Sequence record: PZ445429.1
From: a phage
Length of the DNA stretch: 64,000 bases
Direction: 5' to 3' (one strand)
Position numbers and translations under genes: made by a program
Notes under the pieces: generated by a model
What the model saw: only the letters and a program-made list of their open reading frames with translations
The model's database searches: none
Told to the model about the DNA's origin: nothing
Part shown: in pieces, positions 14,747-31,581 of the stretch
Position numbering within the stretch: the stretch's first letter is position 1
Layout of the letters: every line of letters starts with the position of its first letter

Positions 14747-14917
14747 TGAAATCAGTTGTAATTATTGGTGTTAATACTCGTGGTATCCGTACTACGAAAA
14801 CAGTTAAAACTACTAACGTTGCTGAAATTACTACAAACCCTAAGAAGTTTGATTTCGCCAAAGTCTCAGCAGTTATGACAGAACAATCTTTTAACCAAGC
14901 ACTGGGAATTAAATAAT
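14747..14917 (+). CDS. small ORF (56 aa), not in track
   Basis: promoter 14687-14714 and RBS GAGAGGAAG precede ATG 14747. Confidence 0.4.
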
Positions 14918-15359
14918 GGAAGAGAATATTCTAGATGTTTTGCGTAGGGCTTTGCAGGAATCTAAGGTTGATGGTTCTGATAAAGAAGTAGCTAAAAGCT
15001 ACCAGACCATAATCGGAGATCTTCAGCGTGTTGATAAAGACTTCATTACTTCTGAACAGTTTGTATCTTATCTAAAAGCTCAACTGAAAAGCATTAATCA
15101 GACGAAAGCTAAACTTCACGGTCAAGACCTCGATAATTATAGCTTGCAGTCTGCTCAGTATGAATATATACTGAACAAATGGTTACAGCAGTATTTGCCT
15201 CCTCAGCTATCTGATTCTGAGATTCGCAAATACTTTGCAGAATTAGTTAAGTTGAACCCTGGGATTACAAAAGGTATGCTGATGAAAGCGATTAAGGAAG
15301 AGTTTCCTGGTCGTTACGACGGTGGCATTGCTGCTCAGGTTGCTGGCGAATTTAATTAA
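14916..15359 (+). CDS. hypothetical protein (147 aa)
   Basis: ORF overlapping previous stop (ATGA-type coupling). Confidence 0.5.
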   Translation: MEENILDVLRRALQESKVDGSDKEVAKSYQTIIGDLQRVDKDFITSEQFVSYLKAQLKSINQTKAKLHGQDLDNYSLQSAQYEYILNKWLQQYLPPQLSDSEIRKYFAELVKLNPGITKGMLMKAIKEEFPGRYDGGIAAQVAGEFN

Positions 15360-15402: not shown

Positions 15403-15885
15403 ATGAAAAGGAAAGAATACCCTACTAAAGAAATACTTGAAAAATATTTTGTAGCTGATCCTGATAATGGGATACTATATAGGAAAACAAAGAAAGGTTT
15501 GAAAGAGTGTTGTGCCAATAATAAGAAATCACATCCAGATGTGGGATTTCAGGGCGACACCTATCAACTGCATGTCTTATTATTTATTATGTACTATGGA
15601 TATAGGCCTGAAGAAGTAGATCATAAGGATACTAATCCTAGAAATAATAGGAAAAATAATCTAAGGGACGCCTCTAGATCGCAAAATAATGCGAATAGAA
15701 ACCAACAATGCAATAATACTTCTGGGTACAAAGGAGTAAGTTGGGAAGGCTCTTCCTGGAGATACCAAGTAAGACATGAAGGAAAAAATTACAGTAAAAG
15801 AGGGTTTAAAACTGCGGAAGAGGCTTTCGAGGCCTCTAAGATATTAAGAGAATCCTTACATAAAGAATTTACTAACTTTGGTTAG
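15403..15885 (+). CDS. HNH homing endonuclease
   Basis: YYGYRPEEVDHKDTNPRNNRKNNLR...GYKGVSW (HNH plus AP2-like DNA-binding motif); promoter 15368-15396. Confidence 0.7.
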   Translation: MKRKEYPTKEILEKYFVADPDNGILYRKTKKGLKECCANNKKSHPDVGFQGDTYQLHVLLFIMYYGYRPEEVDHKDTNPRNNRKNNLRDASRSQNNANRNQQCNNTSGYKGVSWEGSSWRYQVRHEGKNYSKRGFKTAEEAFEASKILRESLHKEFTNFG

Positions 15886-16513
15886 TAATAGTGGGGTGCC
15901 GAAACCACTTATGTAACAACACTGCCGTCCTAGTATAATAGGTATTATTAGGGCTTCACCGCCTGAAGATGTGGGTTCGAGTCCCACGGTCGGAAAGAGT
16001 TGGATAACTGGTGCTTCTAATGGCGAAGCAATCGCAGGCAGTTGCGCACTGCCAAAACCACGCGGTAGTTGGTTCCAGGCTAACCAACCACTCTTGAAAA
16101 GTATATACTATGGTTTTGCTTGTTCAAGAAGCTTCGCATCGAAAATCGGAGGTGCGATTTTATCCGACCGCGTGGAGGACGTCTCTCCGTTAAGTGACGA
16201 AAAGTGGGACGATTCAGGTAGAGCTGGATATGGAACACCTATACATATGCGGAGTGCGCACAAAGCATATTGCGGTGGTACTAAACGAAATTAGGAGTCA
16301 TGACCTGCACAAGTTTAGTATGTCATAACCGATGTACATTCAGTACAAAAACCACTGAAGCTAAGATAGATAGTCACCTTGACTTAAACTGGAAGATATT
16401 GTCTGACGGAAGGGCTGCAGAGCTTAATCTGAGGGGGCTGACCCTACCTACCGTCGGGTATCTTTAAGAGCTTTTATAAGAGTTCTTAAAAATACCTAAC
16501 AAAAGGAATCAAT
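15886..16513 (+). ncRNA. ~630-nt ORF-poor GC-richer segment with tRNA-like T-arm and hairpins (candidate structured RNA)
   Basis: GUGGG-UUCGAGU-CCCAC T-arm at ~15971-15988, hairpin GGCAGUUGCGCACUGCC, long-range complementarity GGUCGG(15990)/CCGACC(16166); only a low-quality 107-aa ORF. Confidence 0.25.
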
Positions 16514-17031: not shown

Positions 17032-17106
17032 CGGGGTGTAGTCTAAAGGAGAGGCAGGAGTCTTCTAAATTCCTTTATGCAGGTTCGAATCCTGTCACCT
17101 CGGCCA
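17032..17106 (+). tRNA. tRNA-Arg (anticodon UCU)
   Basis: cloverleaf by hand: acceptor CGGGGUG/CACCUCG, anticodon loop CUUCUAA, T-loop UUCGAAU, encoded CCA. Confidence 0.7.
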
Positions 17107-22237: not shown

Positions 22238-22246
22238 AATTTCACT

Positions 22247-22276
22247 TGCTTAATGCCGAAATTTTCTGTATAATAT
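22247..22276 (+). promoter_or_regulatory. early promoter TTGCTT-N17-TATAAT driving the first tRNA block
   Basis: TTTCACTTGCTT ... CTGTATAATAT immediately upstream of tRNA-Ser. Confidence 0.55.
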
Positions 22277-22288
22277 ATTCATAAATTT

Positions 22289-22382
22289 GGAAGATTAACC
22301 CTAAAGGTAAGGGAGCTGTTTGCTAAACAGCCAGTAACTGTGGATACACGGTGTGCCAGTTCGAATCTGGCATCTTCCTCCA
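22289..22382 (+). tRNA. tRNA-Ser (anticodon GCU), type II
   Basis: acceptor GGAAGAU/AUCUUCC, anticodon loop UUGCUAA, long variable arm, T-loop UUCGAAU, CCA. Confidence 0.65.
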
Positions 22383-22387
22383 AATTT

Positions 22388-22465
22388 GGTTCTCAAGCTC
22401 ATTTGGTATGAGCCGTCGCCTCATAAGCGAAAGGTAGGTAGGTTCGAATCCTCCGGGAGCCACCA
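22388..22465 (+). tRNA. tRNA with CAU anticodon (Met, fMet or Ile-lysidine)
   Basis: anticodon loop CUCAUAA; T-loop UUCGAAU; CCA; 17 nt before ORF start 22483. Confidence 0.6.
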
Positions 22466-22482
22466 ATTAATTAGGAGACTAT

Positions 22483-22668
22483 ATGTCTAGATTCTACGAA
22501 ATGAAGAAAGCATTAGAAGAATGTCGGTGTAAGGACTGTCATGGTGGTGGTAGGCAGGATGATGCAGAACCTGGGGATATTTTCTGTAGAGAATGGGAAT
22601 GTCCTACATGTAAAGGTACTGGTATCAACCCTGAATATGCAATTTGTCTAGACATTGAGCGAGGCTAA
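22483..22668 (+). CDS. zinc-ribbon protein (61 aa)
   Basis: CRCKDC ... CPTCKG Cys pairs; RBS AGGAG. Confidence 0.5.
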   Translation: MSRFYEMKKALEECRCKDCHGGGRQDDAEPGDIFCREWECPTCKGTGINPEYAICLDIERG

Positions 22669-23008
22669 GATGGATATTTTTACTACTCCGGCAATAAACC
22701 TTTTAGGTGTTGGCTTGTTCCAAGCTACGGTGTATCGTACTGATGATTCTACTGATGTGGTAACGTTCATCGTACCTGAGTTCTTCCTAGAAAAGTTCTT
22801 TGAAGAGTTTGAGCAGTTCCGTGAAGAACACAATGCTCATTCCGATATGGAAGATCTAGCAGCTATGTTCCCTGTGGTTTACGGCTATATCTTTGAAGGT
22901 AATGGCCTAGATCTTAATAAATCTGAACTCGTTGAACTTAACTGGGGCATCAATTTTGAAGTTGGCTCTCCATTTCCTCGATATTTCCAGGGTTTAGAGA
23001 TTCGATAA
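22655..23008 (+). CDS. hypothetical protein (117 aa)
   Basis: ORF overlapping previous by 14 nt. Confidence 0.5.
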   Translation: MSEAKMDIFTTPAINLLGVGLFQATVYRTDDSTDVVTFIVPEFFLEKFFEEFEQFREEHNAHSDMEDLAAMFPVVYGYIFEGNGLDLNKSELVELNWGINFEVGSPFPRYFQGLEIR

Positions 23009-23016
23009 GATTACAT

Positions 23017-23093
23017 GGGGGTGTAATCGAATTGGCATAGGTACTGGACTTAAAATTCAGGTTTTGTGGGTTCGAATCCCACCACCCCTACCA
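23017..23093 (+). tRNA. tRNA with UAA anticodon (Leu-decoding by anticodon) but short variable loop
   Basis: acceptor GGGGGUG/CACCCCU, anticodon stem CUGGA/UUCAG loop CUUAAAA, T-loop UUCGAAU, discriminator A, CCA. Confidence 0.5.
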
Positions 23094-23244
23094 AATTAAG
23101 GAAATAAAATGAAAGCTAGTAAGAAAGCACTACGTAAATTTATGTACTGTCGTTTTCATAGCATCAAGACTTCAACTAATGGTACGACTTATGATCGCTA
23201 TGATCCTAAGTTTGGCTTACATTCTAAATAACTGGAGAAAACAA

Positions 23245-23451
23245 ATGGCTAATCCTGAAATTACGGCACAGCGCTTTATGCTAAAAGGTATTATTGCTGA
23301 AGCAGGCGTGACACAAGAAGTGGAAGATTTCCATAAGCAGTTCCTAAATATTCTCACTCAAGCCAAAGAGCTAGGAGAGAAAGAACATGGCGCGGCTATT
23401 ATGGCAATCACATTGGTTGGGCTTGATCTGGCAGAAGAATCAGGAGTTTAA
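23245..23451 (+). CDS. hypothetical protein (68 aa)
   Basis: ATG 23245 after RBS GGAGAAAA (track start 23179 lacks RBS). Confidence 0.45.
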   Translation: MANPEITAQRFMLKGIIAEAGVTQEVEDFHKQFLNILTQAKELGEKEHGAAIMAITLVGLDLAEESGV

Positions 23452-23541
23452 CTCCTCCAAGCAGAAATTTTAAAAATGTACTTGCCTTTTGCTTTAAATT
23501 TCTGGTATAATAGTTATATAAATTGATGAAGGAGTTAACGA

Positions 23542-23817
23542 ATGCAAAATCGTGTTATAGCAACTGGTATTGAAAGTGCAATCTGTAAATCCTGGGAAGG
23601 CTGGGAAGGTGAGATTGAATGGCTTTATTTCTACGATGTAGAACTTCTGCCGGAAGTTAAAGCTAAATGTGTTGAAGCTGGCATGGCTCCAGATGCAAAA
23701 GCTGATATTGATATTTCAATGTCTGAACTTAAAGGTCGTGTAATTACTGTTAGTGATGAGGGCGAAGAAGTTTTCGAACTTCCATTCTCCTTAACTGTCA
23801 CTCCTAAGTTCGATTAA
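23542..23817 (+). CDS. hypothetical protein (91 aa)
   Basis: promoter ~23481-23509, RBS GAAGGAG. Confidence 0.5.
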   Translation: MQNRVIATGIESAICKSWEGWEGEIEWLYFYDVELLPEVKAKCVEAGMAPDAKADIDISMSELKGRVITVSDEGEEVFELPFSLTVTPKFD

Positions 23818-24007
23818 CTAATACAGCACTTAGCAAGTTCTTTAAAATTTGACTTGCTCAGTGCCTTAAAACTTGATATAATAGTTATCTAATTTGGAAA
23901 ACATATCTGAATGAGAAGTAACTAAGCGAGTTGCTTTTAGGGGTAAAGTCAGGATTTCCTGAAATATTCCACTTTGAGTTTAACCGACTTACTTTTCATT
24001 CAAATAT

Positions 24008-24088
24008 GGGGGATTGGCTCAGTGGCGACGGCGCCTGGCTGTAGACCGGGTATATCACGCGGAGGTTCGAGTCCTCCATCCCCCACCA
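24008..24088 (+). tRNA. tRNA-Tyr (anticodon GUA), type II
   Basis: acceptor GGGGGAU/AUCCCCC, anticodon loop CUGUAGA, long variable arm, T-loop UUCGAGU, CCA. Confidence 0.6.
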
Positions 24089-24096
24089 AAATTAAT

Positions 24097-24171
24097 GCAC
24101 CTATCGTCTAATGGTTAGGACATCAGGATTTCAATCTGAGAATCGGAGTTCAATTCTCCGTGGGTGTGCCA
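24097..24171 (+). tRNA. tRNA-Glu (anticodon UUC)
   Basis: D-stem GUCU/GGAC, anticodon stem UCAGG/UCUGA loop AUUUCAA, T-loop UUCAAUU, CCA. Confidence 0.55.
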
Positions 24172-24180
24172 ATTAATAAT

Positions 24181-24251
24181 TGGGGTACGCATAGGTTGCT
24201 AGTGGGCCTCCAAAACCCATGAAAAGGTTTCGAATACCTTTACCCCTGCCA
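24181..24251 (+). tRNA. tRNA-Trp (anticodon CCA), compact
   Basis: anticodon loop CUCCAAA, T-stem AAGGU/ACCUU loop UUCGAAU, discriminator G, CCA; U1:U72 and C31:A39 mismatches. Confidence 0.5.
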
Positions 24252-24257
24252 ATATTT

Positions 24258-24332
24258 GCACCTTTAGCTGAGATGGATTAGCGCTTGCCTGAAGAGCTTG
24301 AGAGGTTGGATCGTTACCAACGGGGTGCACCA
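24258..24332 (+). tRNA. tRNA, anticodon unresolved (non-canonical T-loop AUCGUUA)
   Basis: acceptor GCACCUU/GGGGUGC plus CCA; anticodon arm could not be folded cleanly by hand. Confidence 0.35.
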
Positions 24333-24334
24333 AT

Positions 24335-24622
24335 TTGAAGGAGATGCTGATGCATCCTGAAAACTTCTTTATTTACTGTGCGGATAAGTCATTAAAACGC
24401 AGAATTAATAAAGTCTATCATTATCGTGCCAGTCAACAGCCTTATGTTTATGCTTTTGACGGAGATCACATCCCACTAGAACAATTGGCATGTGATTACA
24501 TGGTATTGAAGAACTTTGACGAGACAAAGATCTCAAGCGTTCATAATCGACAGAACCCGTTAACGTGGAAATATAAGAAGAAAAAGAAAGGCATCATATT
24601 TCTGAAAAATGTAGTTGCTTAA
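24335..24622 (+). CDS. hypothetical protein (95 aa)
   Basis: ORF immediately after tRNA block, RBS AAGGAG. Confidence 0.45.
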   Translation: MKEMLMHPENFFIYCADKSLKRRINKVYHYRASQQPYVYAFDGDHIPLEQLACDYMVLKNFDETKISSVHNRQNPLTWKYKKKKKGIIFLKNVVA

Positions 24623-24672
24623 CCACTTAAAGTTCTGTATAATTATTACATAAGTTGAACTGGAGAAGCAAC

Positions 24673-24897
24673 ATGACAGAACAAGAATTGAAAGAACGTA
24701 AGCTGGTAATGCTTCGCTTACTAAACATTTTCTCTGGTATGGATGGTGGTATTGACTTCATTCAACTACGCACTTTTGTAGAAGAAGCAGAAGGCGAGGC
24801 TATCACTAGGATTCTTAAACATATGGGTTTGTTACTAGATGCTGCTAATGTGGCTACTCAATATAAACTCAAAGATTTACCAGAGCGTGTTAAATGA
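24673..24897 (+). CDS. hypothetical protein (74 aa)
   Basis: ATG 24673 after RBS GGAGAAG. Confidence 0.45.
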   Translation: MTEQELKERKLVMLRLLNIFSGMDGGIDFIQLRTFVEEAEGEAITRILKHMGLLLDAANVATQYKLKDLPERVK

Positions 24898-25085
24898 AAA
24901 TGTTAGTTAAATTTAAGTGTTGTGGTTCTGAACATATTTTCACTCGTTATAGAGAGTTTAAGATGTGTGAGTGTGGTAAGTCAGGCTATGATGCTGGAGA
25001 TGGCTTTTATGCTAGATCTTTAGGACATTCTAAAGATCTAGAGTTTACTAATCTCGAAAAGCAAGATAAATCGACCGTTGGCTGA
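24894..25085 (+). CDS. small Cys-rich protein (63 aa)
   Basis: CCGSEH ... CECGKSG; 3' end overlaps start of tRNA-Cys. Confidence 0.4.
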   Translation: MKMLVKFKCCGSEHIFTRYREFKMCECGKSGYDAGDGFYARSLGHSKDLEFTNLEKQDKSTVG

Positions 25086-25147
25086 ATGGCTTAGGCGGAG
25101 GCCTGCAAAACCTCCTTATGTGAGTTCGAATCTCATGCGGTCGTCCA
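25072..25147 (+). tRNA. tRNA-Cys (anticodon GCA)
   Basis: acceptor CGACCGU/GCGGUCG, anticodon loop CUGCAAA, T-loop UUCGAAU, CCA; 5' end overlaps stop of ORF 24894-25085. Confidence 0.6.
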
Positions 25148-25153
25148 AATTTA

Positions 25154-25239
25154 GGGCCGTTGGCTGAATGGTTTAAGCGCCGGACTGTTAATCCGTATCC
25201 GCAAGGATAAAGTAGGTTCGACTCCTACACGGCCCGCCA
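25154..25239 (+). tRNA. type II-like tRNA, simplest fold gives anticodon GUU (Asn) with a 15-nt variable-arm hairpin
   Basis: acceptor GGGCCGU/ACGGCCC, anticodon loop CUGUUAA, variable hairpin AUCC-GCAA-GGAU, T-loop UUCGACU, CCA. Confidence 0.45.
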
Positions 25240-25266
25240 ATTTCATTAACAACTGAGGAAATAGAT

Positions 25267-25452
25267 ATGACAACTCGTGCAATTGCTCGACTAGAAGCTG
25301 ATCGTGATAATCTGATTAATAATATTAAGGTTCGTGGTAATATTATTAAGGCTCTGAAAGCTGAACTTCTTGAAGAACTTCAAGGTCAAGTAGAGCGTCG
25401 TGAAGCTCTAAAAGAGGTTGAGGAAGCTATCGAAAAACTCAAGGCTGAATAA
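25267..25452 (+). CDS. small coiled-coil protein (61 aa)
   Basis: RBS GAGGAAA. Confidence 0.45.
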   Translation: MTTRAIARLEADRDNLINNIKVRGNIIKALKAELLEELQGQVERREALKEVEEAIEKLKAE

Positions 25453-25455
25453 ATT

Positions 25456-26037
25456 ATGCACGGAATATCCTTACCCATTCCAGGGTTTGAGGAGTACTTA
25501 GTAAGTTTGGATGGGTTAGTATTTAGTATCAAATCAAACAAAATACTAACCCCAATAACCAGTAATTACGGATACTTATCTATACGTCTCCATAAAAATG
25601 GTCAACAGAGAAATACCGGTGTACATAGGATTTTAGCATGTGCATTTAAGAAATTACCAAGTCTAGACTCTGAACTAGAAGTTGACCATATTAACACAGA
25701 CATTACTTATTGGGGTCTTAATAACTTACAAGTGCTCACAAAAGAGCAGCATCTAGAAAAGACTTTAAAAGACAAAGGATTTAGTAAACTAAACCATGAT
25801 AATTGTTGTAAGGATTGTGGTAAAGCTATTTCTTTAAAAGCTGAAAAATGTCAGGAGTGCTCTTCACATAAACCAAAAGATATCTCTATAACTAAAGAAA
25901 TAATCGAGGTTACAGTAAGAGAGCTAGGCTGGTCAGGTGCAGGGAGAAAGTTAAGTTATTCAGATAATGGGTTGCGTAAAAGATACACTTCTTTAGGAGG
26001 CAATCCTAAAGAACTTAAAAAGTTAAAGGTACTATAG
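25456..26037 (+). CDS. HNH homing endonuclease with C-terminal zinc ribbon
   Basis: HRILACAF...EVDHINTD...NNLQVLTKEQH HNH core; CKDCGK...CQEC. Confidence 0.65.
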   Translation: MHGISLPIPGFEEYLVSLDGLVFSIKSNKILTPITSNYGYLSIRLHKNGQQRNTGVHRILACAFKKLPSLDSELEVDHINTDITYWGLNNLQVLTKEQHLEKTLKDKGFSKLNHDNCCKDCGKAISLKAEKCQECSSHKPKDISITKEIIEVTVRELGWSGAGRKLSYSDNGLRKRYTSLGGNPKELKKLKVL

Positions 26038-26102
26038 TCTAACGGTTAGGATACTCCCCTGTCACGGGAGAGGTAGGGTTTCGATTACCCTTAGTACCGC
26101 CA
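26028..26102 (+). tRNA. tRNA-Asp (anticodon GUC)
   Basis: acceptor GGUACUA/UAGUACC, anticodon stem CUCCC/GGGAG loop CUGUCAC, T-loop UUCGAUU, CCA. Confidence 0.7.
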
Positions 26103-26108
26103 AATTAT

Positions 26109-26185
26109 ACATCCATAGCTCAATTGGTTAGAGCTACCGCCTCTTAAGCGGTAGGTTCTAGGTTCAAGTCCTAGTGGGTGTACCA
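26109..26185 (+). tRNA. tRNA-Lys (anticodon CUU)
   Basis: anticodon stem ACCGC/GCGGU loop CUCUUAA, T-loop UUCAAGU, CCA. Confidence 0.65.
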
Positions 26186-26267
26186 AACATCAGAGCAGCG
26201 TGATGTACTGCAAAGACCCAAAGTCCGGGGTGGACTTCTTGATTCAAAGGAGCAGGCATTAATTATC

Positions 26268-26389
26268 ATTCTAGCGTGGTGGAGAGGGGACACCAGCTTG
26301 CCGAGGGTAGAAGCTCGTTCGATTCGAGTGAAAGAATGGTTCTCGTAAATCCGCACAAGTGATAGTAGGTTCAAGTCCTACCTAGATTG
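26268..26389 (+). ncRNA. tRNA-like element with ~45-nt insertion (interrupted or degenerate tRNA)
   Basis: terminal helix AUUCUAG/CUAGAUU (6 of 7 bp) encloses 122 nt ending in canonical T-arm GUAGG-UUCAAGU-CCUAC; no CCA. Confidence 0.25.
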
Positions 26390-26398
26390 ACTCATTAT

Positions 26399-26469
26399 GC
26401 GTTCGTAGTTAAAAGGTATAATTTTTGGTTGCCAACCAGAAGTTGAGGGTTCGATTCCCTCCGACCGCA
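26399..26469 (+). tRNA. tRNA-Gly (anticodon GCC), CCA not encoded
   Basis: D-stem GUUA/UAAU, anticodon stem UUUGG/CCAGA loop UUGCCAA, T-loop UUCGAUU; one acceptor mismatch. Confidence 0.5.
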
Positions 26470-26788
26470 CAAAATCTTTGTAGGTCGCGTCACTTATAGT
26501 GGGACTACAGGGTAAACAAGGCGATGAGTTTCCGGCCGGTTCTAGTCGCTGAAAATCCTCCCGACCAGGTAGGTGTAGGTAAACGAAAGTTTACTTATTG
26601 AGTAGGTTCCGATAGATCGGCGGGTCTATTCTGGCGTTTAAGAGAAGTCTCGCAAACTTCTTTGTCAGCCGTGGGGCTTGAACCCTCCAGGTGGCCTACG
26701 CAATAAGTAAATTTATTAAAAATTCATTTGCTATTTTGCTTAATTCTCTGTATAATATATCTTATAAAGTGTTGAGAAGGAAAGCAAA

Positions 26789-26986
26789 ATGAAAAAAGTT
26801 ATGTTACTATCTGTATTCTTACTCACTGGTTGCTTTAAATTTGATTCAACCATTAACAAGGAGTATGAATTTGCAAAAAATTTCTGTGGTGGAGAGAGTA
26901 AAATACAAAACTTCAGTATACACTCTACAATTCCTAGTACCATTTACTGCATAGATGGACGGAATATTAATATTCCACCACAATAA
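26789..26986 (+). CDS. small lipoprotein (65 aa)
   Basis: signal peptide with lipobox LLTGC; promoter ~26730-26758. Confidence 0.5.
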   Translation: MKKVMLLSVFLLTGCFKFDSTINKEYEFAKNFCGGESKIQNFSIHSTIPSTIYCIDGRNINIPPQ

Positions 26987-26995
26987 AAGAATATT

Positions 26996-27072
26996 CTCCG
27001 ATTAGCTCAATTGGCTAGAGTACACCGTTTGGGGCGGTGGGGTTGAAGGTTCGAGTCCTTCATTGGAGACCA
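26996..27072 (+). tRNA. tRNA-Pro (anticodon UGG)
   Basis: anticodon stem CACCG/CGGUG loop UUUGGGG, T-loop UUCGAGU, CCA. Confidence 0.65.
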
Positions 27073-27078
27073 AACAAT

Positions 27079-27156
27079 TGCGGGTTAGATCTTTGGTAGA
27101 GATCGCTAGTCTCATAAGCTAGAAAGAGGTAGGTTCGATTCCTACACCCGCTTCCA
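27079..27156 (+). tRNA. tRNA with CAU anticodon (second copy; Met/fMet/Ile-lysidine)
   Basis: anticodon stem CUAGU/GCUAG loop CUCAUAA, T-loop UUCGAUU, CCA. Confidence 0.6.
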
Positions 27157-27177
27157 ATTTAATAGAAGGATTTCGAA

Positions 27178-27342
27178 ATGAAATTATTTCGTTTAAAAGT
27201 AAGTGATCTACGTTCTAGCAAAGATCGTAAGAAGTATCCACTAGCCCATTACGGTAAAGATGAAAACGAAGTGATGGCGGAATTTGGTATTAATCATCCT
27301 TACTTAAAAGTCTACTCTATTAAAGAAGTCTATGCTAATTAA
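27178..27342 (+). CDS. small ORF (54 aa), not in track
   Basis: RBS AAGGA before ATG 27178. Confidence 0.35.
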   Translation: MKLFRLKVSDLRSSKDRKKYPLAHYGKDENEVMAEFGINHPYLKVYSIKEVYAN

Positions 27343-27805
27343 TAAAGTTTTAGCTGCCTTAAACCTTCCTGATAACTTCATTATAGATGATAAGCTCATA
27401 AGAGCTTATATGAGCAAATATAACGAAATTTCGGGTAAAGAAGGTAAGTTAAAAACTTCAGAGTTTAGATTCTGTTATCGAATGGCAGCCTTAAATCTCT
27501 TAAAGTATAAAAGGGAGCATAAAATACCTATAACGGAAGGTTTTGTATATGTAATTGGTAATCCAGCATGGCCAGGCATGTATAAAATAGGTATGACTAT
27601 AGATGTGAATGAGAGGTTAGCAAGTTATCAAACTTATTCACCTAATAGAGACTACAAGCTATACCATTTCAGATTTTCGTCGGATAAAAGACGTACAGAG
27701 AAAGAATTACATAATCTTCTTAAAGATTATAGAGTATCTGGAGAATGGTTTGAAGTACCTGTACTAGATGCTTTTAAATTATTAGTAGAAAAATTGGATT
27801 GCTAG
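27332..27805 (+). CDS. T5orf172-type (GIY-YIG-like) domain protein, putative homing endonuclease
   Basis: GFVYVIGNPAWPGMYKIGMT ... EWFEV pattern of GIY-YIG-like/T5orf172 family; 3' end overlaps tRNA start. Confidence 0.55.
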   Translation: MLINKVLAALNLPDNFIIDDKLIRAYMSKYNEISGKEGKLKTSEFRFCYRMAALNLLKYKREHKIPITEGFVYVIGNPAWPGMYKIGMTIDVNERLASYQTYSPNRDYKLYHFRFSSDKRRTEKELHNLLKDYRVSGEWFEVPVLDAFKLLVEKLDC

Positions 27806-27873
27806 CTCAACTGGATAAGAGTAGCGGACCTTTAATCCGTCAGTTCTGGGTTCGAATCCCAGGCAATCCACCA
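27796..27873 (+). tRNA. tRNA-Lys (anticodon UUU), C at position 33
   Basis: anticodon stem GCGGA/UCCGU loop CCUUUAA, T-loop UUCGAAU, CCA; 5' end overlaps stop of ORF 27332-27805. Confidence 0.5.
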
Positions 27874-27877
27874 AATT

Positions 27878-27951
27878 GCTCGGTTAGTTTAATGGGAGAA
27901 CCCCGTCTTTACACGGCGGTTGCGATAGTTCGATTCTATCACCGAGTACCA
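27878..27951 (+). tRNA. tRNA-Val (anticodon UAC)
   Basis: anticodon stem CCGUC/GGCGG loop UUUACAC, T-loop UUCGAUU, CCA. Confidence 0.6.
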
Positions 27952-27970
27952 ATTAACTCAAAATAAGGAA

Positions 27971-28330
27971 TTGCAAATGCAATTATCAAGCAAGGTTCAA
28001 GGCTATTTCGGGCATGTAACAATGGAGTTCGCTATCTCTAAAGGTTGGGACTTCGAACAAGATCTAGCTGAGTTCTACAAAGATATTGATCTGAACGTAC
28101 CATACATGGGACTCTCCACTGGTCAAGAGATCACAGAAGGCGATGTGTTCAAGGCAAGTCAAGGTGAGGTAACACCTAGTTTTGCCAAGTTCTGGTTAGG
28201 TATCACACTGAAAGAAGATGCACCAGAGGATGGTGTGGTTATGCAGAGTATGCACTCTGGAAGCTCTGATTACCTTTTCGTTAGTGACGTTAAGGAAATA
28301 CAAGAAATCGCTAAAAATGTACTTGCTTGA
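27971..28330 (+). CDS. hypothetical protein (119 aa)
   Basis: RBS AAGGAA. Confidence 0.5.
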   Translation: MQMQLSSKVQGYFGHVTMEFAISKGWDFEQDLAEFYKDIDLNVPYMGLSTGQEITEGDVFKASQGEVTPSFAKFWLGITLKEDAPEDGVVMQSMHSGSSDYLFVSDVKEIQEIAKNVLA

Positions 28331-28591
28331 TGCTTAATTTCTTGTTATAATATTTATATAAATTGATGAGGAGAAATCCTCATCAAAGTTCACTAAGGTA
28401 TTAGCTCGACCCAGGACTGGCTGCCAAAAAGCACGATCCCTACGACTCGGGAGAAGTTCTAGATTAGTCCACTAGATTCAGCGGCAACTGAATAGTGTAT
28501 CGGGTTTGTGAAGAGCGGTTATCCTCTACTGGCTAATGTCTGAGGGTAATACGCACACCGAGCTAATAGCCTTAGTAAACTTAAAGATTTT

Positions 28592-28665
28592 GGGGATATA
28601 GTTTAATGGTAGAACATCTGCTTTGCACGCAGAAGACGAGGGTTCAACTCCCTCTTTCTCCACCA
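28592..28665 (+). tRNA. tRNA-Ala (anticodon UGC)
   Basis: G3:U70 pair, anticodon stem UCUGC/GCAGA loop UUUGCAC, T-loop UUCAACU, CCA. Confidence 0.6.
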
Positions 28666-28671
28666 AAATTC

Positions 28672-28747
28672 GGGGTCATAGGTTATTTGGTTAAACTTAC
28701 TGCCTTGCAAGCAGTGGAACTCAGTTCAATTCTGAGTGACTCCACCA
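28672..28747 (+). tRNA. tRNA, anticodon UGC by simplest fold (second Ala-like copy)
   Basis: G3:U70 pair, anticodon stem ACUGC/GCAGU loop CUUGCAA, T-loop UUCAAUU, CCA. Confidence 0.45.
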
Positions 28748-28754
28748 AACAAAT

Positions 28755-28835
28755 GGGGATGTGGCGAAATTGGCAGACGCGCTAGATTTAGGTTCTAGTC
28801 TTCGGGTGTGGGTTCGAGTCCCTCCATCCCTACCA
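28755..28835 (+). tRNA. tRNA-Leu (anticodon UAG), type II
   Basis: anticodon stem CUAGA/UCUAG loop UUUAGGU, long variable arm, T-loop UUCGAGU, discriminator A, CCA. Confidence 0.6.
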
Positions 28836-29009
28836 AACATTGGATTAACTCATGATGAAAACTCCTATAACTGATATCTGGTTAGCTGTTAATACATTAA
28901 CTAAAGAGTATGTGTTTATAGAGTATGGTCAGAGGTATGACCAAAAGATGTATAATCTCATACTTCCAGTATCCGCTAATGAAGTTTATGATTTAATCCT
29001 GAGATCTAC

Positions 29010-29101
29010 GGAAGAGCAAATCGATAGGTGACGAAAACCGCTTGGAAAGTGGCTGACTTGTTAAAGCAGGCTTGAGAGTTCGAATCTCTCTTCTTCCGCC
29101 A
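29010..29101 (+). tRNA. tRNA-Ser (anticodon GGA by best fold), type II, 92 nt
   Basis: acceptor GGAAGAG/UUCUUCC, D-stem UCG/CGA, anticodon loop UUGGAAA, ~20-nt variable arm, T-loop UUCGAAU, CCA. Confidence 0.45.
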
Positions 29102-29108
29102 AACAACT

Positions 29109-29198
29109 GGAAGGTAGGACATAGTGGTATGTAACAGGTCTTGAAAACCTGCCCGCTGTAGCGATATGGTGATGGTTCGACTCCATTACCTTCCTCCA
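29109..29198 (+). tRNA. tRNA-Ser (anticodon UGA), type II
   Basis: acceptor GGAAGGU/ACCUUCC, anticodon stem CAGGU/ACCUG loop CUUGAAA, long variable arm, T-loop UUCGACU, CCA. Confidence 0.65.
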
Positions 29199-29214
29199 AC
29201 TAATAAGGAAAAAT

Positions 29215-29550
29215 ATGAGTAGTTATACTAAAATGTATATTGCAGTACTAGATGAAGCACCCGATTATATGGTACCAACTCTAGTTGCTCACTCTGTTTT
29301 AAACGCTCATATTAAGTTTCAGGATGACCCTAGGTATGGGGATTGGCTTGATAATTCTTTTAAGAAAGTAATTCTTAGGGTTAATAAAAAAGAATTTAAA
29401 AAGATCATATCTACCCTAGAGTGTTACGTAGGTTTTGAGCGCACTATCTGTAATGCAGAACCTAGCTGTTTAGTAGTTATGCCTATGAGTTCTGTTGATA
29501 TGCCAAATGTTTTAAAATTTGCTAGACTTTGGAAACCTAAAGATGTTTAG
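29215..29550 (+). CDS. hypothetical protein (111 aa)
   Basis: RBS AAGGAAAAA. Confidence 0.5.
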   Translation: MSSYTKMYIAVLDEAPDYMVPTLVAHSVLNAHIKFQDDPRYGDWLDNSFKKVILRVNKKEFKKIISTLECYVGFERTICNAEPSCLVVMPMSSVDMPNVLKFARLWKPKDV

Positions 29551-29938
29551 CAACTAGTATTCTTGAAGTATGCCGGAATCGGTAGACGGGGCTTCCTAAA
29601 GGGCGTAAGGGGAACATCCACTCCTCATAAGATACCCGAAAACGAGGCTGAGATAAATGGTCTATCTCATGAAGGTTCAAGTCCTTCTGCTTCTTGATAT
29701 TCAATGGCTCAAAGTGTAACGGTGCTATTTGATGTTCTTAGTAAGACTTTCCCGACATGCGTTCGGGAGTAAGCTGCTAAGGCTAGAGTAGAAGAGTTTC
29801 GGAGAGCCGCCACAATTGAGTATTACTAGAGAGCATTCGCAAGAAAGAATCAGGAGAAAGACCTGTGCGCAGAATGACTAACTTTGGTACCTTAGACGGC
29901 CAAATGGAGGACTGATCATCCCCTAATAGTATTCAATT

Positions 29939-30015
29939 GTGGCTATATCATAATTGGTTAATGATCCTGATTGTGAATCAGGCCTATGTGGATTCGAATT
30001 CCACTAGCCACCCCA
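29939..30015 (+). tRNA. tRNA-His (anticodon GUG)
   Basis: acceptor GUGGCUA/UAGCCAC, anticodon stem CCUGA/UCAGG loop UUGUGAA, T-loop UUCGAAU, discriminator C, CCA. Confidence 0.65.
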
Positions 30016-30021
30016 AATATT

Positions 30022-30096
30022 GCGTCCTTATTTCAACGGAAAGAATGTAAAGCTACGAACTTTACGATCGGGGTTCGATTCCCTGAGGATGCACCA
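30022..30096 (+). tRNA. tRNA-Arg (anticodon ACG)
   Basis: anticodon stem UAAAG/CUUUA loop CUACGAA, T-loop UUCGAUU, CCA. Confidence 0.65.
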
Positions 30097-30120
30097 ATTA
30101 ACTTAAACAGGAAATAAAAT

Positions 30121-30321
30121 ATGGCTGATTTCTGCAAAGAATGCTCTATTGATATGTGGGGAAGAGATACTGGTGATCTTTCTGGTCTGATTACAGAAGC
30201 CGAAGTTAAAGAAGGCTATGGTGCCGTTGTAATCTGTGAAGGTTGTGGCATTATCCGTGTTGATCATAATGGTAAACGTCTAGAAGAGCCTGATCCAATC
30301 GCCACGGTTTCTGTAGAATAA
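30121..30321 (+). CDS. small zinc-binding protein (66 aa)
   Basis: CKEC ... CEGC; RBS CAGGAAA. Confidence 0.45.
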   Translation: MADFCKECSIDMWGRDTGDLSGLITEAEVKEGYGAVVICEGCGIIRVDHNGKRLEEPDPIATVSVE

Positions 30322-30329
30322 AAAATTAT

Positions 30330-30405
30330 TGGAGTGTAGCTCAACTGGCAGAGCGACGGTTTCTGACACCGTAGGTTTCTAGTTCGATCCTAGACATTCC
30401 AGCCA
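30330..30405 (+). tRNA. tRNA-Gln (anticodon CUG)
   Basis: anticodon stem ACGGU/ACCGU loop UUCUGAC, T-loop UUCGAUC, discriminator G, CCA. Confidence 0.6.
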
Positions 30406-30411
30406 AACAAT

Positions 30412-30489
30412 TGGGGATTAGCTTAGCTTGGCCTAAAGCTTCGGCCTTTGAAGTCGAGATCATTGGTTCAAATCCAATATCCCCTGCCA
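30412..30489 (+). tRNA. tRNA-Gln (anticodon UUG)
   Basis: D-stem GCUU/AAGC, anticodon stem UCGGC/GUCGA loop CUUUGAA, T-loop UUCAAAU, discriminator G, CCA; U1:U72. Confidence 0.55.
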
Positions 30490-30497
30490 AACAATAA

Positions 30498-30573
30498 GCG
30501 GTTAAGCACACGGGTTGTGCCGCAGGCCTTCCAAGCCCCGCTGAGTAGGGTTCGATTCCCTCTAGCCGCTCCA
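30498..30573 (+). tRNA. tRNA, possibly Gly (anticodon UCC), weak anticodon stem
   Basis: acceptor GCGGUUA/UAGCCGC, candidate loop CUUCCAA, T-loop UUCGAUU, CCA. Confidence 0.4.
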
Positions 30574-30590
30574 ACTTTAAGGAAACATTT

Positions 30591-30812
30591 ATGCACGTTT
30601 TTGAGTTTCGTGATAAAAGTAACAATAAACGAGTTATTGTTATTGGAGAAACATACCTAGCATACGAACAAACTGACGGCTCTGTTATCTTGAATGATGA
30701 GAAAGCAAATTTTAGCTTTTATCCAGAAGAACCTTATGAAGAGTTTCGTACTAAGTTTCTTTTACCAGACTGGCTAGCAGTAGCCGAGCAACTAGAATCC
30801 GAAGATGGCTGA
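30591..30812 (+). CDS. hypothetical protein (73 aa)
   Basis: RBS AAGGAAA. Confidence 0.45.
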   Translation: MHVFEFRDKSNNKRVIVIGETYLAYEQTDGSVILNDEKANFSFYPEEPYEEFRTKFLLPDWLAVAEQLESEDG

Positions 30813-30969
30813 TAACCTGAAACTAAAGGTTGACAAACAAAAGAAACGTGTAGAGATTGAGCTTGGTGACGAACGCCTAGCACTATCCTTCGAGTTTCTT
30901 CAGCAGTTGGCGATGACAGTAATGTCTGATAAGTCTCCTGTATTTGAAAAAGAAATCCCGTTGAAATGA
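30805..30969 (+). CDS. small ORF (54 aa), not in track
   Basis: ATG overlapping previous stop (ATGGCTGA); ends just before tRNA-Thr. Confidence 0.3.
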   Translation: MADNLKLKVDKQKKRVEIELGDERLALSFEFLQQLAMTVMSDKSPVFEKEIPLK

Positions 30970-30979
30970 CGGGTTTATT

Positions 30980-31054
30980 GCTCCTAAAGCATTGCTGGCG
31001 ATGCAGTTGCCTTGTAAGCATCTGAACTGGGTTCGACTCCTGGTGGGAGCACCA
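30980..31054 (+). tRNA. tRNA-Thr (anticodon UGU)
   Basis: D-stem GCAU/AUGC, anticodon loop CUUGUAA, T-loop UUCGACU, CCA. Confidence 0.6.
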
Positions 31055-31128
31055 AATTTAAAAATTCATTTGCCTTCTCTCTTATTTCTTGTTATAATAT
31101 TTATATAAATTAATGAGAGGGAAACCAA

Positions 31129-31422
31129 ATGAAACGTTATCTTTCTGTCGTATTCCAAACGGGTGGTCAACGCTATACTTACGAATTTCCTGAGTCTTGG
31201 AAAATTAAAGAAGGTGATCAAGTTGTTGTATTAACACCTCGTGAAGGCTTCAAAGTAGTAACGGTTAAACAAGTCTTTCCAAAAGATCACGAACCATCTA
31301 AGTCTATTCAGTACAAGATGATTCACGGTCTGGTACGAAAAGTACCTAGAACAGAAGTCGAAGTAGATAAAACTGGGGAAGCTAAATACCAGTATACTTC
31401 TTACTTGGATGAAATGATGTAA
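31129..31422 (+). CDS. hypothetical protein (97 aa)
   Basis: promoter ~31068-31096, RBS GAGAGGGAAA. Confidence 0.5.
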   Translation: MKRYLSVVFQTGGQRYTYEFPESWKIKEGDQVVVLTPREGFKVVTVKQVFPKDHEPSKSIQYKMIHGLVRKVPRTEVEVDKTGEAKYQYTSYLDEMM

Positions 31423-31423
31423 T

Positions 31424-31499
31424 GCTCTGATAGTTCAACAGGTTAGAACAGGCGACCGATAATCGTCAAATCTTGGTTCGATCCCAAGTCGGAGTACCA
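31424..31499 (+). tRNA. tRNA-Ile (anticodon GAU)
   Basis: D-stem GUUC/GAAC, anticodon stem GGCGA/UCGUC loop CCGAUAA, T-loop UUCGAUC, CCA. Confidence 0.55.
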
Positions 31500-31505
31500 A
31501 ATTAT

Positions 31506-31581
31506 AGTTAGTTGGCAGAGTGGTTATGCACCTCCTTCATACGGAGCGACTACAGTGGTTCAACTCCACTACTAACTACCA
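31506..31581 (+). tRNA. tRNA with CAU anticodon (third copy; Met/fMet/Ile-lysidine)
   Basis: acceptor AGUUAGU/ACUAACU, anticodon loop UUCAUAC, T-loop UUCAACU, CCA. Confidence 0.55.

Follow-up and report, generated by a model that had tools for sequence, protein, structure and literature searches.

The stretch of DNA considered here, referred to below as the window, comprises 64,000 nucleotides (nt) of the phage record PZ445429.1, and the element of interest is an island of genes for transfer RNA (tRNA), situated at positions 22289-31581. The initial annotation, made by hand folding, had counted about 30 tRNA genes, 29 of them within 9 kilobases (kb), and had singled out several with unusual structures. 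ARAGORN and Rfam bear out the count, giving 29 genes in 9.3 kb and a thirtieth, tRNA-Arg(UCU), outside the island; the complete set carries 27 anticodons and serves all 20 amino acids. The genes are as follows, each with the program or comparison on which it rests.

17032-17106, plus strand: tRNA-Arg(UCU), the thirtieth gene, outside the island (ARAGORN; Rfam 50.5 bits; 98.7% identical to T5 tRNA-Arg)
22289-22382, plus strand: tRNA-Ser(GCU), 94 nt, class II (ARAGORN, Rfam)
22388-22465, plus strand: first CAU tRNA, homolog of T5 tRNA-Ile2(CAU) (85.9% identical to T5 Ile2, 100% to Stitch)
23017-23093, plus strand: tRNA-Leu(UAA), 77 nt, class I (ARAGORN structure; Rfam 57.4 bits)
24008-24088, plus strand: tRNA-Tyr(GUA), 81 nt (ARAGORN; 60-67% identity with the alleles of T5 and Stitch at this locus)
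24097-24171, plus strand: tRNA-Glu(UUC) (ARAGORN, Rfam; 58-60% identical to the T5 and Stitch alleles)
24181-24251, plus strand: tRNA-Trp(CCA), 71 nt (relaxed ARAGORN only; 3 differences in 71 nt from T5 tRNA-Trp)
24258-24332, plus strand: tRNA-Phe(GAA), T-loop AUCGUUA (Rfam 33.4 bits; relaxed ARAGORN)
25072-25147, plus strand: tRNA-Cys(GCA) (ARAGORN)
25154-25239, plus strand: tRNA-Asn(GUU), 86 nt, class II-like (ARAGORN; Rfam 58.5 bits; five-arm fold in RNAfold)
26028-26102, plus strand: tRNA-Asp(GUC) (ARAGORN, Rfam)
26109-26185, plus strand: tRNA-Lys(CUU), no T5 counterpart (ARAGORN, Rfam)
26399-26470, plus strand: tRNA-Gly(GCC), CCA not encoded (ARAGORN, Rfam)
26996-27072, plus strand: tRNA-Pro(UGG) (ARAGORN, Rfam; 100% identical to T5)
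27079-27156, plus strand: second CAU tRNA, homolog of the T5 'initiator tRNA fMet' (ARAGORN; 97.4% identical to T5 fMet)
27796-27873, plus strand: tRNA-Lys(UUU), with C33, C16 and C41 (ARAGORN; compared with E. coli lysT and T5 Lys)
27878-27951, plus strand: tRNA-Val(UAC) (ARAGORN, Rfam)
28592-28665, plus strand: first tRNA-Ala(UGC), G3:U70 (ARAGORN, Rfam)
28672-28747, plus strand: second tRNA-Ala(UGC), G3:U70 (ARAGORN, Rfam)
28755-28835, plus strand: tRNA-Leu(UAG), 81 nt, variable region reduced to about 9 nt (ARAGORN; T5 allele 85 nt)
29010-29101, plus strand: tRNA-Ser(GGA) (ARAGORN; too low a score for the Rfam tRNA threshold, 26.5 bits with the tRNA-Sec model)
29109-29198, plus strand: tRNA-Ser(UGA) (ARAGORN, Rfam)
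29939-30015, plus strand: tRNA-His(GUG) (ARAGORN, Rfam; 100% identical to T5)
30022-30096, plus strand: tRNA-Arg(ACG), no T5 counterpart (ARAGORN, Rfam)
30330-30405, plus strand: tRNA-Gln(CUG) (ARAGORN, Rfam)
30412-30489, plus strand: tRNA-Gln(UUG), U1·U72 mismatch (ARAGORN; 100% identical to T5 Gln1)
30498-30573, plus strand: tRNA-Gly(UCC), weak anticodon stem (relaxed ARAGORN; 97.4% identical to T5 Gly1)
30980-31054, plus strand: tRNA-Thr(UGU), G39 (ARAGORN; the part of the anticodon arm around G39 is identical to T5 Thr)
31424-31499, plus strand: tRNA-Ile(GAU), C33 (ARAGORN)
31506-31581, plus strand: third CAU tRNA, homolog of T5 tRNA-Met (ARAGORN, Rfam; 98.7% identical to T5)

With default settings, ARAGORN finds 26 tRNAs in the island and 28 tRNA-like genes in the whole window, the latter including tRNA-Arg(UCU) and a weak element at 15923. 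The Rfam tRNA model at its gathering score also gives 28 matches in the window, gaining tRNA-Phe(GAA) at 24258 and missing tRNA-Ser(GGA). At a relaxed threshold ARAGORN gains tRNA-Trp(CCA), tRNA-Phe and tRNA-Gly(UCC), each of which has an annotated T5 tRNA gene at the matching position. Two further relaxed matches, one called 'Ala' (26265-26337, inside a stable-RNA homolog) and one called 'Leu(aag)' (29327-29423, inside an open reading frame (ORF)), lack a CCA end, have poor stems and were discarded as false positives. Of the 30 genes, 29 encode the CCA end, the exception being tRNA-Gly(GCC), which ends ...GCACAA; the end of its Stitch ortholog reads ...GCACCA. All the multiple genes listed by the initial annotation were recovered by the tools, namely three tRNAs with a CAU anticodon, two each for Gln, Lys and Ala(UGC), the last pair both with G3:U70, and three for Ser.

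The automated tools also draw the unusual structures where hand folding had placed them: the 77-nt tRNA-Leu(UAA) without a long arm, the class II-like tRNA with anticodon GUU, the U1:U72 mismatches in tRNA-Trp and tRNA-Gln(UUG), C33 in tRNA-Lys(UUU), and the odd T-loop at 24258-24332. Conventional structures were not assigned throughout in the ARAGORN and Rfam runs, and so the observation stands. A residual doubt is that the oddities are folding errors or the remains of degenerating pseudogenes. The Trp, Phe and Gly(UCC) genes do fall under the ARAGORN default threshold, tRNA-Trp is missed by Rfam even at E = 10, and in the Stitch record the Ser(GCU) and Trp loci hold what are labelled pseudo-tRNAs. 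Given, however, that the tools reproduce every unusual structure, that conservation of the sequences extends to T5 and to other genera, and that effective suppressors are obtained from the Gly(UCC) and Gln(UUG) tRNAs of T5, error or decay is hardly conceivable as a general explanation. According to the T5 record, effective amber suppressors were obtained upon anticodon replacement from Gly1 (Gly(UCC)), Gln1 (the counterpart of the window's Gln(UUG)) and the Lys, Tyr, His, Ala and Ser tRNAs.

A megablast search aligns 80-92% of the island, in 6-13 pieces and at 92-95% identity, with many T5-like phages of Escherichia and Salmonella, among them SUT_E1620, PMBT22, EPS7 and bobsandoy (Epseptimavirus and other T5-like phages). 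The gene order follows that of the T5 record tRNA for tRNA, stable RNAs included, and the T5 record names the homologs of the three CAU tRNAs Ile2(CAU), 'initiator fMet' and Met; by the T5 annotation, Ile2(CAU) reads AUA once it is lysidine-modified. On sequence similarity, the source of the island is a virulent T5-like enterobacterial phage (Demerecviridae, Epseptimavirus type), whose tRNA-rich region it forms. With T5 (AY543070, about 28-41 kb) and the T5-like regions of SP15, BF23 and EPS7 it shares gene order, promoter type and the presence of homing endonucleases between tRNAs; also common to T5 and the window are the stable RNAs RNA1, RNAI, RNA2, RNA2H, RNAIV and RNAX, as well as ORFs that overlap tRNA 5' ends. 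The island itself is thus ordinary for T5-like phages, a well-studied, textbook kind of region.

The individual genes are less uniform. Several window tRNAs are 97-100% identical to their T5 counterparts, while five have no T5 counterpart (Leu(UAA), Lys(CUU), Gly(GCC), the second Ala and Arg(ACG)) and others are alleles that differ from those of T5 (Tyr, Asn, Lys(UUU), Glu, Asp, Ser(GCU) and Ile). tRNA-Asn is class II in the window and class I in T5, and tRNA-Lys(UUU) has C33 and U39 in the window where T5 has U33 and A39. When Stitch is included in the comparison, the alleles form a mosaic: identity to both T5 and Stitch is only 58-80% for Tyr, Glu, Asp, Lys(UUU), Asn, one Ala and one Gln, and His, Val, Pro, Phe, Cys and Leu are 97-100% identical to one or the other. 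Two of these genes, tRNA-Leu(UAA) and tRNA-Asn(GUU), depart from the expected architecture in opposite directions.

In tRNA-Leu(UAA), the variable loop consists of 5 nt, GUUUU (ARAGORN), so that the long arm of bacterial class II tRNA-Leu is missing. The remainder of the molecule includes A73, a Leu-type D-stem of 3 base pairs (bp), an 11-nt D-loop, GAAUUGGCAUA, and the T-loop UUCGAAU. The D-loop aligns with that of E. coli leuZ, GAAUCGGUAGA, with A14, A15, G18, G19 and A20a retained, and the variable loop ends in U48. Leucyl-tRNA synthetase (LeuRS) of E. coli is reported to need A15-U48, G18G19 and A20a, and tRNA variants without the long arm remain active (reviewed in PMC9976931). Since A73, A15-U48, G18G19, A20a and an intact D-loop/T-loop core are all present, tRNA-Leu(UAA) holds every known determinant of the E. 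coli enzyme. The same tRNA, with an identity of at least 99%, occurs in 291 phage records of GenBank, and its sequence has no match in 5,426 complete E. coli genomes.

How widespread such tRNAs are among viruses was approached with the pattern GAATWGGYATASGT-N24-28-GGTTCGA, in which nothing but the Leu-type D-loop and the class I spacing is fixed and the anticodon is free. At least 120 contigs of the IMG/VR database contain it, a family size and not a prevalence, since the viral samples were chosen with our own patterns. Among the matches listed, to which all family counts below refer, the anticodon is a Leu anticodon in 124 of 124 (CAA 44, UAG 39, UAA 30, CAG 6, AAG 4, GAG 1). The family comprises 147 unique 77-nt sequences, every one with A73 and most with the Leu-type D-loop, and its stems are paired in 92-100% of the sequences at each position, with 2-6 types of pair. 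In addition, among loci that had not been selected for Leu, 50 of 117 unique viral Leu tRNAs are class I. Reviews have described tRNA-Leu without a long variable arm from animal mitochondria only, and phages are an exception to that statement. Like the mitochondrial class I tRNA-Leu, the phage tRNAs lack the long arm and would be recognized through A73 and D-loop elements; unlike it, they have an entirely canonical D-loop/T-loop core and are found in bacterial viruses. Presumably they are charged by bacterial LeuRS.

The second departure is the reverse of the first. A long variable arm is normally reserved for Leu, Ser, Tyr and Sec tRNAs, and bacterial tRNA-Asn is a class I molecule with a variable loop of 4-5 nt; tRNA-Asn(GUU) of the window departs from this in having a 3-bp D-stem and a 15-nt variable region, for which ARAGORN and RNAfold draw the 4-bp hairpin AUCC-GCAA-GGAU. 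Its anticodon arm is identical to that of E. coli asnT over 18 nt. Moreover, it combines the GUU anticodon with G73, so that the known determinants of asparaginyl-tRNA synthetase (AsnRS), which are G34, U35, U36 and G73, are complete. The window sequence has no match in the 5,426 complete E. coli genomes. In homologs the arm is preserved through compensatory changes, reading GUC-GAAA-GAC in Stitch, GUUC-GAAA-GAAC in Proteus phage Stubb and in the Phapecoctavirus ESCO13, and GUCA-GAAA-UGAC in the T4-like Klebsiella phage Roth04; ordinary class I Asn tRNAs occur in T5, Vibrio phage JSF12 and Aeromonas phage LAh_8.

Scanning IMG/VR for a host-like anticodon arm followed by class II spacing recovered at least 120 viral contigs. 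The family obtained comprises 98 unique long-arm sequences, of which 93 have G73. It includes 53 distinct variable-arm stems, mostly capped by GNRA loops (GAAA in 42), with a stem of 3-4 bp and a whole variable region of 13-17 nt. When 33 sequences of the same geometry were aligned, all four variable-arm pairs were found to vary on both sides, and the inner three are paired in 97-100% of the sequences; the covariation score of the arm is 0.598, versus 0.150 in shuffles (0 of 500 as high) and at most 0.10 in slid registers. In cellular genomes (one for each of 185,579 species), the same pattern was found in 30 stretches only, 11 of which lie in dense tRNA arrays. Both arm architectures, the lost and the gained, therefore exist, are conserved and are biased toward viruses. 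In the literature searched, neither a phage tRNA-Asn of class II nor a phage tRNA-Leu of class I was found described, which is not proof of novelty.

Two observations on the long-armed gene may be added. Class II-like tRNA-Asn(GUU) genes also lie on Micromonospora/Verrucosispora chromosomes (loci L245, L246, L250 and L269), inside arrays of 23-36 tRNA genes per 8 kb that look like the blocks of tRNA genes in phages and mobile elements. In the window, the adjoining tRNA-Cys(GCA) and tRNA-Asn(GUU) genes have near-identical 5' halves, CCGTTGGCTGAATGG[C/T]TTA[G/A]GCG, which suggests a duplication or gene conversion between neighbours.

Could either tRNA be charged with the wrong amino acid? The window's tRNA-Asn shares G1-C72, G2-C71, C11:G24, G73 and the variable arm itself with E. 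coli tRNA-Ser, and charging by seryl-tRNA synthetase (SerRS), or charging of tRNA-Leu(UAA) by some other synthetase, would amount to recoding of the kind known from nematode nev-tRNAs, which reportedly are charged with Leu. The nev-tRNAs (PMC3333845), with Gly/Ile anticodons, resemble the phage Asn tRNAs in combining a long variable arm with an anticodon of a class I family. The phage tRNAs, however, have Asn determinants in G73 and, for the most part, U1-A72, so that no recoding is implied for the family. Indeed, 64 of the 98 sequences have U1-A72, as does E. coli tRNA-Asn, and only 23 combine G1 with G2 as is typical of Ser; on these counts the long-armed family is an Asn family. The arm is also smaller than a Ser arm, being 4 bp and 15 nt in the window and 13-17 nt across the family, versus about 17-22 nt in the window's Ser tRNAs, and on the Leu side, A73, the mostly Leu-type D-loop and the exclusively Leu anticodons speak for leucylation. 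With the complete set of known AsnRS determinants also in place, mischarging is very unlikely as a general explanation, even if SerRS cross-charging of the subgroup to which the window's tRNA-Asn belongs (G1-C72, G2-C71, G73) is possible.

The smaller oddities of the island have parallels as well; C33, U1·U72 mismatches and the A54/U58 T-loop all recur in other phages. The anticodon loop of tRNA-Lys(UUU) is CCUUUAA, with C33, and C33 is also present in tRNA-Ile(GAU). This nucleotide occurs in 2.2% of 2,819 unique phage tRNAs, including 23 of 107 Ile(GAU) and 4 of 103 Lys(UUU), and the C33 anticodon arm of tRNA-Lys(UUU) is found on an unrelated backbone at another locus (L023). In tRNA-Phe, the T-loop reads AUCGUUA instead of UUCGAAU, so that U54-A58 is swapped to A54-U58; T5 tRNA-Phe is canonical. 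Stitch, Proteus phage Stubb and Aeromonas phage LAh_8 share the T-arm GTTGGATCGTTACCAAC with the window; across Salmonella, Proteus and Aeromonas phages, GUUGGAUCGUUACCAAC is unchanged although the other stems vary. The U1·U72 mismatch is shared by tRNA-Trp, tRNA-Gln(UUG) and the CAU tRNA at 27079. Glutaminyl-tRNA synthetase must open the 1:72 pair, and the mismatch in tRNA-Gln(UUG) therefore fits its Gln identity. tRNA-Trp has G73 and a degenerate D-arm, and its minimum free energy (MFE) structure in RNAfold is cloverleaf-like. The CAU tRNA at 27079 combines the mismatch with A11:U24, as in initiators, and has U73 and one of the three initiator G:C pairs (G30:C40). Finally, the variable region of tRNA-Tyr is shortened to 10 nt and its anticodon loop, CUGUAGA, has G37 where E. 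coli, T5 and Stitch have A37; the locus is occupied by alleles of three lengths, 81 nt in the window, 88 in T5 and 91 in Stitch.

Variable arms on unexpected isoacceptors are not confined to tRNA-Asn. In other viral contigs, such hairpins occur more rarely, on 12 of 145 Thr(UGU), 9 of 137 Lys, 9 of 89 Cys and 7 of 137 Pro tRNAs, and GNRA-capped ones recur on these same four tRNAs in viral arrays. Some arrays (IMG/VR loci L043, L047, L127, L196 and others) hold class I and variable-arm copies of one isoacceptor next to each other; the pairs in L043 measure 72 and 89 nt for Asn, 75 and 89 for Cys, 76 and 87 for Pro, and 73 and 90 for Asp. ARAGORN also reports 33 unique IMG/VR tRNA-Ile(UAU) sequences of 88-101 nt, mostly 91-96 (for example in L232, L238 and L183). 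Many of these long Ile tRNAs, a type that does not occur in the window, have a similar insert in the variable region, with a consensus of about CCAGATTAGCG, and so again join a class I anticodon to a long arm.

What might such a set of tRNAs be for? Tyr, Asn and Asp tRNAs carry queuosine, and Lys, Glu and Gln tRNAs carry 5-methylaminomethyl-2-thiouridine (mnm5s2U); all are classic substrates of anticodon nucleases, and it is suggestive that the allele-variable loci include them. The nuclease AriB of the PARIS system cleaves tRNA-Lys(UUU) of E. coli between positions 40 and 41 and has Thr(UGU) and Asn(GUU) as further targets, and T5 tRNA-Lys resists AriB by virtue of U39A, A41C and U16C (PMC12409363). 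Jointly, the T5 Lys, Thr(UGU) and Asn tRNAs cancel PARIS (PMC11464382, PMC12409363), and T5 deletion variants short of tRNA genes are viable and PARIS-sensitive. The retron-Eco7 nuclease PtuAB cleaves tRNA-Tyr within its variable loop, at U47/C48, and is defeated by T5/SP15 tRNA-Tyr (PMC11555353, PMC12673091), an evasion for which the variable loop of SP15 tRNA-Tyr is required. A phage tRNA-Lys rescues infection from PrrC170. Published experiments on homologs thus indicate that the tRNAs of T5-like phages are expressed, are capable of decoding, and neutralize PARIS, retron-Eco7 and PrrC.

Several window tRNAs differ from the host at the relevant places. In tRNA-Thr, G39 is present as in T5, where the AriB target motif UAAUC|A has U, and tRNA-Tyr differs in its variable loop, the part that PtuAB cuts. 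tRNA-Lys(UUU) has C16 and C41, two of the three AriB-blocking changes, keeps U39, and has in addition C33, which we take to adjoin the bond cut by PrrC. Compared with the published nuclease-resistant phage tRNAs (T5 Lys, Thr and Asn, and SP15/T5 Tyr), the window's Lys and Thr tRNAs are thus changed at the tested positions 16, 39 and 41. A report on bacterial Schlafen was followed up as a lead to a nuclease specific for type II tRNAs, but the paper gave no such specificity.

We consider it probable that the island provides a near-self-sufficient T5-type tRNA set, the odd members of which are working inherited variants that sustain translation under attack by tRNA-cutting defences. The set would constitute a nearly autonomous decoding pool, so that phage translation could continue while host tRNAs are cut or depleted by PARIS AriB, PrrC or retron-Eco7 PtuAB. 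The odd tRNAs would be inherited design variants that keep their synthetase determinants and differ from the host tRNAs where tRNA nucleases are known, or can be expected, to bind or cut. In tRNA-Leu(UAA), the long arm would have been lost with A73, A15-U48, G18G19 and A20a kept; in tRNA-Asn(GUU), a hairpin would have been gained with GUU and G73 kept; Lys(UUU) and Thr(UGU) would be altered at positions contacted by AriB, and Tyr in the variable loop cut by PtuAB. Since the aminoacylation determinants are conserved and the stems covary, the odd Leu and Asn tRNAs can be regarded as working decoders, and we infer that the window alleles are correctly charged and resistant to the nucleases. The initial annotation had offered defence resistance as one of its suggestions, next to decoys and suppressor-like tRNAs; this part is supported by homology to the tested Lys, Thr, Asn and Tyr tRNAs of T5 and SP15, and for the alleles of the window themselves the argument is one from sequence.

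A number of points weigh against this interpretation. The experiments concern the T5 and SP15 homologs rather than the alleles of the window. The AriB motif of the window's tRNA-Asn is still the host-like UAAUC|C, and T5 relatives that encode an Asn tRNA can nonetheless be sensitive to PARIS (PMC12409363), so that the variable arm may not protect against PARIS. In the case of phage Bas34, whichever Asn allele it carries, the authors could not exclude cleavage of its Asn tRNA. The RNAfold MFE structure of tRNA-Leu(UAA) is not a cloverleaf, and pairing and covariation in the family were relied on instead; the family samples themselves are pattern-selected, as mentioned above. Allele replacement could be driven by homing endonucleases, without any selection by defence. 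Finally, a test based on codon usage has little power, since the set covers almost all codons, and the host-rare, phage-common codons CUA, AGA, GUA and UUA do have dedicated tRNAs.

This last point is the starting place for a simpler view, in which the tRNAs do nothing but supplement codons and the oddities are neutral drift tolerated by the synthetases. In relative synonymous codon usage (RSCU), the phage exceeds an E. coli sample of 6,204 codons, a small one, at CUA (1.21 vs 0.37), AGA (1.09 vs 0.35) and GUA (1.47 vs 0.56), and UUA, CCA and GGA are also used more in the phage ORFs; all six codons have a dedicated phage tRNA. By strict wobble, however, 50 of 61 sense codons can be read with the set, among them codons that the host supplies well, and together the 50 account for 85% of codon usage in 62 window ORFs. 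The mean phage-minus-host difference in RSCU is the same for covered and uncovered codons (0.004 vs -0.016, from the same small E. coli sample, whose size itself limits the case). Moreover, the oddities are under selection rather than drifting, as seen in an identical tRNA-Leu(UAA) in 291 records, covarying variable arms and a Phe T-arm kept across three genera, and the T5 homologs have demonstrated anti-defence roles. Codon supply may contribute, and a near-complete autonomous set fits the codon data better than a selective supplement; as the whole explanation, supplementation is unlikely.

Alternatively, some of the tRNAs (the class II Asn, Trp, the odd-T-loop Phe, and Tyr) might serve mainly as non-cleavable competitors that soak up nucleases. 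Competitive inhibition by phage tRNAs is raised in the PARIS and the retron papers alike. Overexpressed viral tRNAs may inhibit AriB by competition (PMC12409363), overexpression of either tRNA-Tyr neutralizes PtuAB toxicity, with the SP15 variable loop needed for inhibition, and the host-identical anticodon arm of the window's tRNA-Asn is what one would expect of bait. Yet conservation, with covariation, extends over the anticodon, the discriminator and every one of the four or five helices, as in a decoder, and for the amino acids of Asn(GUU), Trp, Phe and Tyr the phage set, complete in other respects, has no second tRNA. We regard a mainly decoy function as improbable, while noting that decoy and decoder roles are compatible.

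If the odd tRNAs are working variants that withstand tRNA-cutting defences, as we favour, then a further question is whether the arms themselves matter. Published evasion has mostly involved point substitutions in the anticodon stem-loop or D-loop (compare the anticodon-loop mutation hypothesis of van den Berg 2023), whereas the window's tRNA-Asn has a host-identical anticodon arm with an added helix and its tRNA-Leu has lost a helix, and no nuclease is known to select for either. Tentatively, and with more doubt than conviction, we suggest that gain and loss of the variable arm might be a second escape route from tRNA-cutting defences, beside anticodon-loop point mutations. Arm variants would keep synthetase recognition and would reshape the hinge formed by the anticodon stem, D-loop and variable region, which is where PtuAB cuts (variable loop) and where AriB makes contacts (40/41 and the D-loop); the link between arm architecture and evasion is inferred.

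The tRNA genes are accompanied by promoters, ORFs and other stable RNAs, which are the following.

22246-22274, plus strand: T5-type early promoter TTGC-N17-20-TATAAT, the first of seven in the island (motif scan)
25456-26037, plus strand: ORF for a NUMOD4 + HNH homing endonuclease (Pfam NUMOD4 24.2 bits, over the cut-off; HNH_3 18.5 bits), its 3' end overlapping tRNA-Asp
27332-27805, plus strand: ORF of the T5orf172/MUG113 type (GIY-YIG-like, homing-endonuclease type; MUG113 67.8 bits, T5orf172 55.9 bits), its 3' end overlapping tRNA-Lys(UUU)
26267-26391, plus strand: homolog of T5 RNA2, a tRNA-like stable RNA (blastn, 88% identity over 125 nt)
26602-26702, plus strand: homolog of T5 stable RNA RNAIV (blastn, 94% identity)
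28399-28511, plus strand: homolog of T5 stable RNA RNA2H (blastn, 96% identity)
29562-29812, plus strand: homologs of T5 RNA1 (tRNA-like, 29562-29705) and RNAI (29706-29812) (blastn, 81% and 91% identity)
15882-16102 and 16370-16499: homolog of T5 stable RNA RNAX (blastn comparison to T5)

The other six island promoters of the T5 type lie at 23482, 23854, 24615, 26728, 28323 and 31070. Window-wide there are 26 copies of the motif, 25 of them on the plus strand, versus 1.5 expected, and T5 has annotated promoters at homologous positions; a generic sigma-70 scan gave no enrichment (22 sites vs 24.1 expected). At least seven strong early promoters probably drive transcription of the tRNAs in short units that also take in small ORFs, stable RNAs and homing-endonuclease genes, and the tRNAs would be processed by host enzymes. 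As had been noted from the initial folding, some tRNAs overlap the ends of upstream ORFs. There are four such cases: 24894-25085 runs into Cys (25072), 25456-26037 into Asp (26028), 27332-27805 into Lys (27796) and 28852-29031 into Ser (29010).

Overall, the stable-RNA homologs (RNA1, RNAI, RNA2, RNA2H, RNAIV and RNAX) are 72-96% identical to those of T5, where the annotation gives them as of unknown function; two of those in the island gaps are tRNA-like. No homolog of RNAIII was detected in the window by comparison against the T5 stable RNAs, and an Rfam scan of the 15-33 kb region with E up to 10 found only tRNA and tRNA-Sec families above noise in the non-coding gaps. Within the RNAX homolog lies a tRNA-like fold (15923-15996) with a good T-arm and no CCA end, which ARAGORN calls 'SeC(tca)'. 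It was considered as an opal suppressor or decoder and rejected, the 'anticodon' that is UCA here being ACU in T5 and Stitch, and is better described as a tRNA-like element. With no stop anticodon (CUA, UUA or UCA) on any CCA-ending tRNA among the 30, the suggestion of suppressor-like tRNAs was not borne out. Near the RNAX region, a 147-amino-acid ORF (14916-15359, plus strand) has a YqeY-like (GatB-tail-like) match of 25.4 bits, just under the Pfam cut-off of 27, and its Stitch homolog is annotated 'tRNA amidotransferase'; the product may be a tRNA-binding protein adjoining the tRNA and RNAX region.

The type of island and the anti-defence roles of several T5 tRNAs are already known; what is worth following is the class I Leu and class II Asn families. 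These two oddities generalize beyond the window, in that short-armed tRNA-Leu and long-armed tRNA-Asn are large covarying families in viral contigs. If the changes of shape are escapes from tRNA-cutting immunity, they would point to nucleases that recognize tRNA shape. In that event, the phage tRNAs would also be of use as portable, nuclease-proof scaffolds, and would give a simple sequence signature by which the tRNA arrays of phages and mobile elements could be recognized in genomes.

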